In this document: one piece after another, positions 27,730 through 31,376 of the stretch | Numbering within the stretch: the stretch's first letter is position 1 | Layout of the letters: each line of letters begins with the position of its first letter | Source of the DNA: Patescibacteria group bacterium | GTDB taxonomy: Bacteria; Patescibacteriota; Minisyncoccia; Phycocordibacterales; Phycocordibacteraceae | DNA: 64,000 nt | Direction of reading: 5' to 3' | Assembly: GCA_018971045.1 (NCBI GenBank) | Contig: JAGWVF010000002.1 | Coordinates: 65,133-129,132, forward strand | Notes under the pieces: generated by a model | The model's input: only the letters and a program-made list of their open reading frames with translations | The model's database searches: none | Told to the model about the DNA's origin: nothing | Position numbers and translations under genes: made by a program

Positions 27730-29394
27730 TTACGGCATCGTCTCTGCCATATCGCGTTTGATATCCTCGAAAGTTCCTCCGACTTTTTTACCCGGATTCA
27801 GAATTTCCTGCGGATCGAATATTGTCTTCGTCTTCTTGAAGAGCGCGATCATCTCGTCGCCAAAGAGCATCGGGAGATACGGCGTGCGGATAATGCCGTC
27901 GTTATGTTCGCCGGTAGTGGTACCGCCCTCCTTGATGACGAGCTCGTACACCTTCGGGGCGAGATCGAGGATCACTTGGCGGTTATCTTCTTTCGTAAGG
28001 TCCATGAGCGGAATGATGTGGAAATTGCCGTTGCCGATATGGCCCGCGATCGTGTAGATAAAGTGCTTAGAATATTCGGCGAGAAGCGCGTTCAGCTTCG
28101 GCAAGAATTCCGGATAGCTCTCCGGCGGGACGACGAAGTCGTCGATAAAGGGCGCGGTGTGCAGTCCGCGGACGTTCTTGCGCAAGAGATTGAAGCTCTC
28201 GCGGCGAATAATCCAATACTTCTCCGATTCTTTTTCATTCTTTTCGATCTTCATCTCCAAATGCATGTCGGCTAAAGTCTCTTTCGCCGCCTGCGCTTTC
28301 ATATCGGCTTCTTCGATCGTGTCTTCGGCAAATTCGGCCATGAGGATCATTTTCGGAACGCCGCCCGTCGCTACCAGCGCCGCTTCGGGGATGAGGTCGA
28401 TGCCGAGTTTTGCGGCGCGCACGAACCCCATTTGCGCGAGCATTTGGGGCATGAACTTTACGGCAAGGGTGAAGGTGTTGTCGTCATAGGATTCAAACGA
28501 CTCAGGATGCTGAGGGAGAACCCGCTTCACGATCTCGGGTAACGGCGCGATGTCGTAGAGGAAAACGACCAGCATCGCGCGGTGTTCCTTCGGCTTGACC
28601 AGCGCGAGCTTCGCACTGGTCCAGAGCGCGAGCGTGCCTTGCGAGCCGCAGATAAGCTTCGCGAGATTGAAGGTGCCGTTCTTCGGATCTTTGATATCCC
28701 AGAGGCCGTAGCCGGCGGAATTTTTTGACACTTTCGGCCGCTTCGCTTCGATAAGAGCGGCGTTCTTCTCGAGGAGCGCGTCCATCTCGCGGTAGATTTC
28801 GCCCTCAAGGTTCTGAAGTTTTTTCTTCTCTTCAAGCTCGGCGGCGGTGAGCGGCTTGAAGCGGGCTGATGAGCCGTCAGAAAGGACGACATCCATCTCT
28901 TCGATATAGCGCTCGGTCTTACCGTATTCGAGGGTGCGTTCGCCGCCCGAGTTGTTGGAGACGATGCCGCCCATGGCGGCGATCTCGCGGCTCGCCGGAT
29001 AGGAGGGAAGGACGAGCCCTTTCTCGAGCGTCGCCTTCTCAAAGTCGCGGTAATAGACGCCCGGCTCAGTCGTCGCCCAACCGTCTCCGACTTCGCCCAT
29101 ATGGTTCATATGCTTGGTGAACGATACAACGACTCCGGTAGTCAAAGGGCCGCCCGACATATCGGTTCCGGCGGATCGAGCAGTAAGCGATACGGACTCG
29201 CCCTCCGCCTTCCTGCGGGCAATCTCCTTCACGATCGCGCTTACGTCGTTTGCATCCTTAGGAAAGACCACGAGTTCGGGCATCCGTTCGAAAAGCGACG
29301 TGTCGCGGCTGTTCGCCTTCAGGGTTTCCGCATCATCCGCCACCTCGCCCCGTATCGTCTCCGCAATCGACTTCTTCAATTCTTCAGTATTCAT
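27730..29394 (-). CDS. FAD-binding oxidoreductase (GlcD/D-lactate dehydrogenase-like)
   Basis: RSAGTDMSGG, GGIVSNNSGG, GSQGTL, GHIGNGNFH, GEHNDG, LNPGK. Confidence 0.9.
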   Translation of the reverse strand: MNTEELKKSIAETIRGEVADDAETLKANSRDTSLFERMPELVVFPKDANDVSAIVKEIARRKAEGESVSLTARSAGTDMSGGPLTTGVVVSFTKHMNHMGEVGDGWATTEPGVYYRDFEKATLEKGLVLPSYPASREIAAMGGIVSNNSGGERTLEYGKTERYIEEMDVVLSDGSSARFKPLTAAELEEKKKLQNLEGEIYREMDALLEKNAALIEAKRPKVSKNSAGYGLWDIKDPKNGTFNLAKLICGSQGTLALWTSAKLALVKPKEHRAMLVVFLYDIAPLPEIVKRVLPQHPESFESYDDNTFTLAVKFMPQMLAQMGFVRAAKLGIDLIPEAALVATGGVPKMILMAEFAEDTIEEADMKAQAAKETLADMHLEMKIEKNEKESEKYWIIRRESFNLLRKNVRGLHTAPFIDDFVVPPESYPEFLPKLNALLAEYSKHFIYTIAGHIGNGNFHIIPLMDLTKEDNRQVILDLAPKVYELVIKEGGTTTGEHNDGIIRTPYLPMLFGDEMIALFKKTKTIFDPQEILNPGKKVGGTFEDIKRDMAETMP

Positions 29395-29490
29395 ATCTGA
29401 ATAGTATACCCGCAGTACGGCGTTTTTGTCCCATGTTCAACCGCTATGCTGATGGGGAAAGTACTCTCCAGCCGGTTCATTATAATTGGG

Positions 29491-29518
29491 TTGACAAATA
29501 TGTATAGCCGTGTATACT
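29491..29518 (+). promoter_or_regulatory. Near-consensus sigma-70 promoter with no downstream CDS
   Basis: TTGACA-N16-TATACT. Confidence 0.75.
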
Positions 29519-29524
29519 GAATAT

Positions 29525-29784
29525 GCTTGTTCGGTTCGGGTCATACCCCGTTCGCCTCTCTCGAGCAGAGGTAGAAGTCATAACCCCAGCAAGCGCCGTA
29601 TCGGCGAGAGCTGCAACCGCCGGTACGTACCTCGGGTGTTCCTCGAGCGCAGCCGCCACTACCTAGCCGTGGACGATACTGTAGCGGAAGGGTGAGAGCG
29701 ATGGGATGCTAGGCGCCCGGGGATTGGTCCCCAAAACAAATCGCTCTCACCCGCAGGGCCCCGTTTCGACGGCGGCCCTTTTTT
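29525..29784 (+). ncRNA. Candidate structured non-coding RNA of unknown family
   Basis: Bounded by promoter and terminator; series of hairpins including a perfect 13-bp stem 29690-29702/29740-29752. Confidence 0.6.
29756..29784 (+). terminator. Intrinsic terminator
   Basis: GGGCC-CCGT-TTCG-ACGG-C-GGCCC followed by TTTTTT. Confidence 0.8.
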
Positions 29785-30664
29785 ATTTCTCCATTTTATA
29801 GTGGTTGCGAGTTGTCGATTTTTCCAACTCGGAACGAGTCAGTTTTCGGATCCAAGCCTTTTGACGGCGGGCGTATTGCCAGAGCTTCGCGGAGAGGGTC
29901 GGGAACAGCGACGCTTCATCGCGCTCGCCGCGCAGATACTCGCCCACGATTTTGTATTCAAGGCCAAATTCATTCAGACGCTCGTCTCCCGTTCGTTCAC
30001 GAACCCGGCGAACTTCGTCAATGAGGCCGTGCGCAAGCGCGCTCGCGAGGCGCGCGTCAATCCGAGCGCGCAGCTCTTCGCGGGGCGGATCGAGGATAAT
30101 CCACTCGGCATTATAGGGCGGCATAATCCGCGTTCGTTCCGGAACCGATCCTCTATCCGCAATGATCTCGAGCGCGCGGATAATCCGGCGGCGGTTCTGC
30201 GGATCGAGATCGGCGGCGCGGCGCCCGTCTAAGGAGACGATGCGAGCGTACAATTCTTCAGTCGGCACGTCTTTAAGGCTTTCGCGAAAGGCGGGATCCG
30301 TCTTGACGCCCGGCAGTCCCGACAGAAGCGCGTCAAAATAGAAGTGAGTTCCGCCGGCGAGGATCGGCCGTTTCCCGCGAGCCGCGATCTCGATGATGAG
30401 ATTCGCCGCATCGGCGGCGAAGTCGCCCGCTGAGTAAGTCTCTTCCGGATCGCGGATATCGATCAGATGGTGGGGGATGCCGAGCATCTCTTCGGGAGAA
30501 ATCTTCTCGGTCCCGATATCGAGCCCGCGATACACTTGGCGCGAGTCGACCGATATGATTTCTCCCCCGCGCTCGAGAGCCTCGCGTATCGCGCGCGCCG
30601 ATTTACCCGAGGCCGTTGGCCCCGCGATGCAGATAATATGCGGAGGTTGTGCCTTGCCGGACAT
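29783..30664 (-). CDS. miaA: tRNA dimethylallyltransferase
   Basis: GPTASGKS, DSRQVYRGLDIGT, PHHLID, GGTHFY, YARRQ. Confidence 0.96.
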   Translation of the reverse strand: MSGKAQPPHIICIAGPTASGKSARAIREALERGGEIISVDSRQVYRGLDIGTEKISPEEMLGIPHHLIDIRDPEETYSAGDFAADAANLIIEIAARGKRPILAGGTHFYFDALLSGLPGVKTDPAFRESLKDVPTEELYARIVSLDGRRAADLDPQNRRRIIRALEIIADRGSVPERTRIMPPYNAEWIILDPPREELRARIDARLASALAHGLIDEVRRVRERTGDERLNEFGLEYKIVGEYLRGERDEASLFPTLSAKLWQYARRQKAWIRKLTRSELEKSTTRNHYKMEK

Positions 30665-30716
30665 GCGAGTAAGATGATAAGCGAACCTTACACCGTATCC
30701 AATAACCCTGCCATCT

Positions 30717-31376
30717 ATGAAAGAAACCAAGAGCAATTATTGCGAGAACTGCGGCGAATTCCACGACGCGGTGCGCGACTACCTCTCGCAAGTGAAGGTC
30801 GGCGAGACGGTGCCCGATTTCGAATTCGAAGCATTCCATCAAGGAGAGATTAAGCTCATGAGCCTTTCGAAGTTGCGCGGAAAATGGACCGTCCTCGTCT
30901 TCTATCCGGCCGACTTCACCTTCGTCTGCCCGACCGAGCTCGAGGAGCTCGCGAAGCTGTATCCCAAATTCCAGGCGCAGAACGCGGAGATTATTTCGAT
31001 TTCTTCCGATACCGTATTCACCCACAAAGCATGGCACGAAGTTTCGCCGGGGATTAAAGAGATTAAATATCCCATGGCGGCCGATCCCTCGAGCAAGCTC
31101 GCGTATGCCTTCGGCGTACTCGTTGAAGGCGGAGAAGCGGCGTTCACTCCCGATGAGGGATTGGCTTTACGGGGAACGTTTATTATCGATCCGAACGGTA
31201 TACTTCGTTCGATGGAGATAACCGATAACTCAATCGGCAGGAAGGGCGCGGAAACATTACGGAAGCTCCAGGCGGCGCAGTACGTAGAAACGCACAAAGG
31301 CAAGGTCTGTCCGGCCTCGTGGGAGCCGGGAGAAGATCCGCTCGAACCGGGTCTCGATCTCGTCGGAAAGCTGTAA
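30717..31376 (+). CDS. ahpC: 2-Cys peroxiredoxin (AhpC)
   Basis: FYPADFTFVCPTE and VCPASW. Confidence 0.94.
   Translation: MKETKSNYCENCGEFHDAVRDYLSQVKVGETVPDFEFEAFHQGEIKLMSLSKLRGKWTVLVFYPADFTFVCPTELEELAKLYPKFQAQNAEIISISSDTVFTHKAWHEVSPGIKEIKYPMAADPSSKLAYAFGVLVEGGEAAFTPDEGLALRGTFIIDPNGILRSMEITDNSIGRKGAETLRKLQAAQYVETHKGKVCPASWEPGEDPLEPGLDLVGKL

Follow-up and report, generated by a model that had tools for sequence, protein, structure and literature searches.

The 64,000-nucleotide (nt) stretch analysed here, from contig JAGWVF010000002.1 of a Patescibacteria group bacterium (hereafter the window), contains at about 29525-29784 of its plus strand what is probably the gene of a structured non-coding RNA (ncRNA) that belongs to no catalogued family and is likely transcribed independently, between a consensus promoter and an intrinsic terminator. 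With its homologues in three other species, the feature is real and very probably represents a new structured ncRNA family, small and patchily distributed. Patescibacteria are ultra-small bacteria with tiny genomes and little spare DNA, and to our knowledge almost nothing is known about their ncRNAs. The RNA described here is strongly promoted, intricately folded and listed in no catalogue, and with a tertiary contact backed by a block of compensating changes it offers a concrete new RNA family for study. An earlier note, made from the letters of the window, had proposed a novel structured ncRNA at this place, and the proposal is supported by the lack of an Rfam match, by covariation among the homologues and by an open reading frame (ORF) that is not conserved.

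Four species carry one copy of the RNA each: the window genome (G000), G030 and G010, which belong to the same genus, and G335, which belongs to another family of the order. The G030 and G010 copies were found by a BLAST comparison of the 311-nt region with 61 relatives, in which 41 genomes gave matches at E<=1; the matches in G030 (E 5.3e-5) and G010 (E 0.008) were read and are real copies, and the rest are 15-35-nt matches that were left uninspected. The G335 copy, about 450 nt long, was found (31.1 bits, E 1.7e-4) with R3, a covariance model of the 3' module built from the other three copies. The four copies share one plan: a 5' arm of three helices (P1, P2 and P3) with a pyrimidine-rich apical loop, a group of variable hairpins, a kissing hairpin (HK), a stem (S) enclosing a hairpin (Ha), and a terminator (Table 1). 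The window RNA folds with -115.3 kcal/mol on the plus strand (z = -3.45; none of 200 shuffles was as good), and the G030 and G335 copies reach z = -5.64 and z = -4.59 against shuffles. The middle hairpins number two to four per copy, and their count, length and sequence are different in every homologue. In addition, G030 has the same inner hairpins and A-rich linker as the window copy, and G010 and G335 lack both the linker and the second inner hairpin (Hb).

The helices of this plan are maintained by compensating changes. P2 reads GGUU/AACC in the window, GGUC/GACC in G010, GCUUA/UAAGC in G030 and GCCUGC/GCAGGC in G335, and the 3' strand of P1 is AGCAAGC in the window and AACAAGC in G030. Similarly, the 5' strand of S is GGGUGAGAGCGAU in the window, GGGGCGAGAACGAU in G030, GGGUGAGAG in G010 and GGAGGAAG in G335, where the complete stem is GGAGGAAG/CUUCCUCC; the G030 stem has 14 bp, with two pairs changed on both sides compared to the window. 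Overall, 5 of the 13 S pairs are changed on both sides, and each of the 4 HK stem pairs is changed on both sides in one homologue or more. When every sequence is read in its own register, P2, P3, HK, S, Ha and the loop-loop contact described below are fully paired in the window, G030 and G010 copies, and P1 is fully paired in the window and G030. A four-row alignment fitted to the R3 structure, with 25 modelled pairs, has 92.6% of its 94 cells paired, compared to 80.3 +/- 2.3% in shuffled alignments, and 10 of the 25 pairs are changed on both sides, compared to 3.3 +/- 1.5; neither value was reached in 500 shuffles. When the partners were slid by 1 to 3 columns, just 36-49% remained paired. 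In the fitted alignment, the register of the G030 loop-loop contact is off by one column, so that three of its cells are counted as unpaired, and in its own register the contact is 7/7 paired. The compensating changes that the earlier note had suggested looking for in homologues are thus present.

Judged from the sequences, the predicted pairing between the HK loop and the Ha loop (the kiss) is the best-supported feature of the fold. The two loops are complementary in all four copies, and their letters switch as a block: CCUAGC/GCUAGG in the window and G010, CUCUGGC/GCCAGAG in G030, and (U)CUAGC/GCUAG(A) in G335. The window and G010 count as one event, because their letters are identical. When the loops were shuffled with their composition kept (200,000 trials each), the observed run of pairs was reached in 1.1% of trials for the window (6 contiguous pairs, 2276 of 200,000), 0.6% for G030 and 0.7% for G010. 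The pseudoknot CCTAGC/GCTAGG, which the earlier note had put forward as a possibility from the window copy, is therefore matched by complementarity in every homologue.

Several observations weigh against this interpretation or reduce its force. The four-row alignment was fitted to the model structure and so leans towards it, and a statistical covariation test such as R-scape is impossible with only four sequences. P1 of G010 (AGCAACGC) reaches 7 pairs only with a bulged C, which is skipped in the 7/7 given for it in our pair table, and plain MAFFT alignment leaves two of its pairs unmatched; P1 of G335, read by eye, is weak, with 4 pairs and a bulge. The RNA was not found in most relatives, and hence it either is rare or evolves beyond the reach of the models. 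None of the 20 holders among the public sequencing runs matching window positions 28800-30800 is an RNA run, and transcription is deduced from the DNA. Finally, the partner and function discussed below are purely conjectural.

Everything described in the earlier note exists in the sequence. Its perfect stem around two hairpins and an A-rich linker is paired at 13 of 13 positions in the window copy, and its repeated GTCATA(A)CCCC is present as GTCATACCCC and GTCATAACCCC. The hairpins that it listed are all there, and two of them, CGGG/CCCG and CTCGGG/CTCGAG, are not conserved. The hairpin CAGC-CGCCG/CGGCG-GCTG is also present; however, its outer part, CAGC/GCTG, competes with P1, and it is P1 that the homologues keep.

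Table 1. Features of the predicted RNA gene, in window coordinates.
Feature	Position	Strand	Description
Promoter	29491..29518	+	-35 TTGACA 29491-96, 16-nt spacer, -10 TATACT 29513-18; 11/12 consensus matches
Predicted transcript, ~260 nt	29525..29784	+	5' end inferred from promoter and conserved first helix GCUUGUU; 3' end from terminator T-run
5' arm	29525..29594	+	three stacked helices P1-P2-P3 with apical loop
P1	29525-31 GCUUGUU / 29588-94 AGCAAGC	+	from pair table
P2	29533-36 GGUU / 29582-85 AACC	+	from pair table; covaries
P3	29554-59 GCCUCU / 29567-72 AGAGGU	+	apical loop 29560-66 CUCGAGC
Variable middle hairpins	29595..29655	+	GCCG-UAU-CGGC 29595-29605; CUCGGG-UGUUC-CUCGAG 29631-47
Kissing hairpin HK	29656..29672	+	stem CCAC/GUGG (29656-59/29669-72), loop UACCUAGCC; CCUAGC 29662-67 predicted to pair with 29708-13
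3' module	29690..29752	+	stem S 29690-702/29740-52 enclosing Ha, Hb and linker
Hairpin Ha	29703-05 GGG / 29716-18 CCC	+	inside S; loop contains GCUAGG 29708-13
Hairpin Hb	29719-23/29728-32	+	GGGGA-UUGG-UCCCC, inside S
A-rich linker AAAACAA	29733-39	+	inside S
Intrinsic terminator	29756..29784	+	hairpin 29756-78, tip CCGU-UUCG-ACGG, then T6 at 29779-84

Stand-alone expression of the RNA may be inferred from two observations: the promoter-to-terminator orientation is identical in all four copies (window, G030, G010 and G335), and the G-U pairs of the helices (U-G in P1, G-U in P3 and G-U in S of G030) are valid on the plus strand only. The promoter TTGACA-N16-TATACT singled out in the earlier note is present and is the only near-consensus one on the contig; a strict regular expression gave 9 such promoters in the 742.5-kb genome, and among these 9 the unit described here is the sole case with a terminator and without an ORF bearing a ribosome-binding site. 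A wider form, GGGTTGACAAA-N11-GTGTATACT, is common to the window copy and its homologues, with columns invariant in G030 and G010; the G030 promoter is TTGACAAA-N11-GTGTATACT and is followed by the same first bases, GCTTGTT, as in the window, and the G335 copy has the same promoter type upstream. Since this type also precedes protein genes of the genus, the promoter is a genus consensus rather than specific to this RNA. A uniform strong promoter, (C/G)TTGACAAA-N11-(C)GTGTATACT, was in fact observed genus-wide (window 29486-29518; L098 1540-1501, minus strand; L104-L111). At the other end, the UUCG-capped terminator with six T, also seen previously, is present and abuts the stop codon of the convergent gene miaA (29783-85), and each homologue ends in its own, different hairpin and T-run. 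Related samples show no variant within the RNA: in DNA contigs from four runs, its sequence is identical.

The genes next to the four copies, named by visual reading of their translations and not by a protein-family scan, differ from locus to locus, and no neighbouring gene is common to all of them. In the window, the RNA lies between a divergent FAD-oxidase-like gene (27730-29394, minus strand) and the convergent miaA (29783-30736, minus strand). The G030 copy lies near miaA and a peroxiredoxin gene, as in the window, with one small ORF between the RNA and miaA. In G010, the copy has the reverse orientation and is separated from miaA by 1.9 kb; a tRNA gene precedes it and a kinase-like gene faces it. 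The G335 copy lies between rplU and rmuC. The earlier suggestion that homologues be sought near miaA thus held for G030, which is beside the gene, applied loosely to G010 and failed for G335.

The RNA was compared with known families using Rfam 15 (4227 models). At the gathering score, the whole window gave two tRNAs and nothing else; in 29350-29900 at E<=10, only SNORD45 (16 bits) and PK-BYV (14 bits) appeared, both at chance level. The earlier note had named a family match as the result that would remove novelty, and there is none at the gathering score or, meaningfully, at E<=10. At the G010 and G030 loci, searched at E<=5, only a tRNA was above threshold, and ARAGORN reported no gene like a tRNA or transfer-messenger RNA (tmRNA) in 29300-29900. 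The models of raiA, OLE, ROOL and GOLLD, as well as that of HEARO, gave no match in the whole window or in 29350-29900. Likewise, no description of this RNA was found in the titles and abstracts listed by literature searches on noncoding or structured RNA in Patescibacteria, Parcubacteria and the candidate phyla radiation.

The absence of hallmarks of RNase P RNA, tmRNA and signal recognition particle (SRP) RNA, which had been remarked on from the sequence, agrees with these searches. An identity as RNase P RNA or tmRNA was rejected, as the genome's copies lie on another contig, at C3:38700-39033 (111 bits) and C3:21672-22079 (101.5 bits), respectively. No match to RF00013 (6S RNA) or to RF00169 and RF01854 (SRP RNA) was obtained anywhere in the 99.6%-complete genome, the assembly of which contains no N. 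The small SRP RNA model RF00169 had matches in 0 of 61 genomes of the order (the window genome and 60 relatives, from 25 families). PF00448, which would catch Ffh and FtsY, also had matches in 0 of these 61 genomes at E<=1e-5, with 14 of 14 controls positive, and gave none above the cut-off in the window genome; the Ffh M domain (PF02978) had no match in the window genome even at E<=10, and the control genomes were positive. A possible lack of the SRP in these bacteria was not described in the titles and abstracts listed by a literature search. Since neither SRP54-type GTPases nor the Ffh M domain was found in the window genome, an SRP RNA would lack its partner, and this candidate was rejected by its context together with the lack of an RF00169 or RF01854 match.

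6S RNA is a single long irregular hairpin with a large central bubble, whose 5' and 3' ends are paired. It stands alone behind a strong promoter, is abundant and measures 150-300 nt, and the RNA described here appears similarly placed; the 6S slot is open in this genome, as RF00013 has no match. Nevertheless, 6S RNA was rejected as an identity: in the fold found here, a 5' arm is followed by 2-4 separate hairpins and then by a 3' stem with the kiss, so that it is not a single rod with a central bubble, and the RNA was not found in most close relatives.

Within the genus, 3 of 222 species genomes (G000, G010 and G030) carry the RNA, as judged by exact pattern and BLAST. The pattern GTATACT-N5-9-GCTTGTT occurred in 6 of the 222 genomes, where 3 matches are real and 3 are chance matches in coding sequence (G128, G161 and G165), and the reversed-pattern control gave 8. 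BLAST with the G010 RNA matched 7 of the 222 at E<=0.02, the real ones being G010, G030 and G000; G182, G088 and G022 have 18-26-nt matches to the G010 RNA that were left uninspected. G016 was rejected as a carrier, for it shares the promoter only, before a protein gene. Three covariance models were run on 151 sampled genomes of the genus: R1 (3' module, from the window and G030), R2 (promoter and 5' arm) and R3. R1 matched 2 of 151 and missed G010; hence, search sensitivity is limited, and not found does not equal absent. R2 matched 47 of 151 at E<=1; past the three known copies, the next 8 were read and are generic promoters before other genes, and the rest were left unread. R3 matched 6 of 151 at E<=0.3, of which 3 are true, the G133 and G008 matches are coding-like, and G015 (18.9 bits) was left unread.

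Outside the genus, R3 matched G335 alone among 150 other sampled genomes of the order, nothing in 150 other sampled genomes of the class (only G000 among 151), and only G335 itself among 101 genomes of its relatives. With laxer filters, 0 of 5 close relatives matched R3 at E<=1, and R1 with filters off gave scores of at most 14 bits at 25 loci, 24 of them miaA loci. In genome and metagenome contigs, the exact pattern GTCCCCAAAACNAATCGNTCTC brought up only G030's own contig, twice, and one chance match in coding sequence, and a shorter pattern in viral contigs gave 13 loci, none matching R1. When 29 miaA loci were scanned for promoter-to-terminator units, only that of G030 appeared, together with one unit holding an 82-codon ORF. 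The miaA-peroxiredoxin pair is kept in 24 of 29 other loci of the genus (window 29783-31376; L057-L085), the DNA past the miaA stop differs in each of the 29, and none of them has the window's FAD-oxidase gene adjoining miaA, which marks the region past miaA as a synteny breakpoint. A patchy occurrence of this kind argues for an accessory rather than a housekeeping role, and it makes the RNA a candidate for an accessory function, such as host interaction, regulation or defence.

Other explanations for the same DNA can be weighed against these results. A role as a cis-acting leader or riboswitch, with the terminator controlling a gene further down, is very unlikely. G030 does have a co-oriented 95-codon ORF about 35 nt past the terminator, which would fit such a role, but this ORF has no homologue in the window genome, and it is the only co-oriented case among the four copies. 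The next gene is convergent in the other three, namely miaA in the window, the kinase-like gene in G010 and rmuC in G335, and since 3 of 4 copies face a convergent gene, the RNA would be neither a leader nor a message. The chance that it is a small-protein or leaderless mRNA seems smaller still. Two ORFs are present in the region, 29523-29666 (47 codons) and 29510-29695, and the ATG at 29523 is close to the predicted transcript start. However, this ATG is absent in G030 and G010, substitutions preserve base pairs rather than codons, and in six-frame blastp the window and G030 shared nothing beyond short matches, which fell in several frames of both strands and lay over the nucleotide-conserved 3' module, with no match between the window and G010 or between G030 and G010. 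Conservation of ORF 29523-29666, which the earlier note had named as evidence against an ncRNA, was accordingly not found. An equally small probability is assigned to a functional minus strand, on which the region would serve either as miaA's 3' tail or as a long leader for the FAD-oxidase gene (27730-29394). The minus strand has a nearly equal fold (z = -3.28), so fold energy alone cannot choose the strand; miaA, ending at 29783, would read into the region, and promoter-like sites of the oxidase gene lie at 29506-29479 and 29432-29403. On the other hand, the structured part lies upstream of these sites, the G010 and G335 copies adjoin neither of the two genes, the G-U pairs of P1, P3 and S would become A-C mismatches, and a T-run follows the hairpin on the plus strand only.

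Two alternatives remain. One is that the RNA travels between genomes as the guide-like or scaffold component of a mobile or defence system, comparable to an omega RNA, a bridge RNA or a retron-type ncRNA, with its protein partner encoded elsewhere or lost; this is unlikely, though less so than the readings above. The distribution, with 3 of 222 genomes in the genus and one species of another family, would suit such an element, as would the three genus carriers, which do not cluster in a miaA tree (poorly resolved, with 13 of 27 inner branches open), and the synteny breakpoint downstream of miaA, with glcD not adjacent to miaA in any of the 29 other loci. The G010 copy, beside its tRNA gene, lies in a 1.3-kb segment made up of the RNA, a P-loop kinase-like gene and a rhodanese gene (L092 5900-7330 vs L100 5565-6142); G023, the nearest genome to G010 in the same tree, lacks this segment, has no RNA at the syntenic place and has the tRNA inverted. 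Against this, no transposase, nuclease, reverse transcriptase or shared protein gene was read beside any copy, flanking direct or inverted repeats were not found, each genome has a single copy, and blastn against phages and plasmids gave no match. Any transfer would not be recent, since the copies are as diverged as host genes. A guide or scaffold RNA of the HEARO/omega, bridge or retron kind was rejected, as no neighbouring IscB/TnpB, IS110 recombinase or reverse transcriptase was read and HEARO had no match. About half as probable as a mobile element is a very diverged 6S or SRP RNA missed by the Rfam models. The genome lacks a match to either, and the consensus promoter resembles those of stable RNAs, both of which leave room for it; but the failure to find SRP54-type GTPases and the Ffh M domain, the string of hairpins with a kiss in place of the 6S rod, and the lack of matches to the RNA in close relatives, where a housekeeping RNA would be expected, all speak against it.

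Based on the preferred reading, a structured ncRNA likely transcribed independently, a mechanism of action may be proposed. The RNA would act in trans as a folded particle, neither message nor leader. The HK-Ha kiss, of 5-7 bp, would lock the 3' module into a rigid body, and the conserved pyrimidine-rich loop of the 5' arm would be the site that meets a partner. This loop is the most sequence-conserved element; with adjoining stem bases it reads CUCUCCCGGU in G030 and G010, CUCUCCGGU in G335 and CUCUCUCGAG in the window. It might pair with a purine-rich RNA stretch (for example, Shine-Dalgarno-like GGAG), bind a protein or, by way of a core that is self-complementary, join a second RNA copy. 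The core is CCGG in three copies and is changed on both sides to UCGA (within CUCGAG) here. This is only a hint of self-pairing, as 4-nt palindromes are common by chance. When the complement of the P3 hairpin loop was used to look for targets, only frequent coding-sequence words came up.

Parts of this proposal resemble known systems. Trans-acting small RNAs of the RsaE/RoxS type pair with Shine-Dalgarno regions through C/U-rich hairpin loops, and the present RNA may be similar in being terminator-ended, predicted to be independently transcribed and equipped with the conserved pyrimidine-rich apical loop CUCUCCCGGU; however, it is far larger and consists mostly of conserved tertiary architecture, and the target scan found no target. 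In kissing-loop complexes, such as ColE1 RNAI/RNAII and the HIV-1 dimerisation initiation site, a self-complementary loop core lets two copies pair. The RNA described here shares with them loop-loop helices of 5-7 bp and a self-complementary core (CCGG, here UCGA within CUCGAG), whereas its covarying loops are on one RNA and dimerisation is only a possibility. raiA is an RNA of about 200 nt in Firmicutes and Actinobacteria. Like raiA, OLE, ROOL and GOLLD, which are stand-alone genes with many hairpins, long-range loop contacts and a function that is unknown or partly known, the present RNA combines hairpins with a predicted loop-loop contact, but it is smaller (~260-450 nt) and so far limited to four Patescibacteria species.

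According to one report (PMC12286853), OLE, ROOL and GOLLD form RNA-only assemblies held by kissing loops and A-minor contacts, and the intermolecular contacts covary; another (bioRxiv 10.64898/2026.07.01.735769) states that small RNAs can also assemble. It is conceivable, if improbable, that the RNA described here is a miniature self-assembling particle whose copies join through the 5' arm loop core and through HK-Ha kisses made between molecules. If so, it would be a small counterpart of OLE, ROOL and GOLLD in bacteria with 0.7-Mb genomes where no SRP was found, and RNA-only quaternary structures would then be known from small RNAs of uncultivated symbionts as well.

Further observations were made on individual genomes. 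On its 5' side, the G335 RNA is longer by about 145 nt (L117 1170-1313); this additional part contains a second CUAGC loop and stem strands GGUGUCC/GGACACC resembling Ha, which suggests a partial internal duplication or an alternative pairing. DNA nearly identical to window positions 28800-30800 (all sampled words) occurs in runs labelled as wastewater, wetland and soil metagenomes, and 0.86 of the words are found in a groundwater-labelled run. With the 20 holders spread over 7 studies, the organism or very close strains seem to be widespread. Three other genomes, G070, G129 and G005, have in common a leader that contains a long hairpin and lies behind a consensus promoter (L104 1501-1720; L105 minus 1634-1400; L109 minus 1574-1330). 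The hairpin reads GTTCGCCACAGCAGAAAGCGGCTT ... CTGCTGTGGCGAA, for which G070 has GTTTGCCGTAGCAGAAAGTGGCTT instead. Next come a Shine-Dalgarno sequence, AGGAGA, and an ORF, which looks similar in G129 and G005. This leader is possibly a conserved element of the 5' untranslated region.

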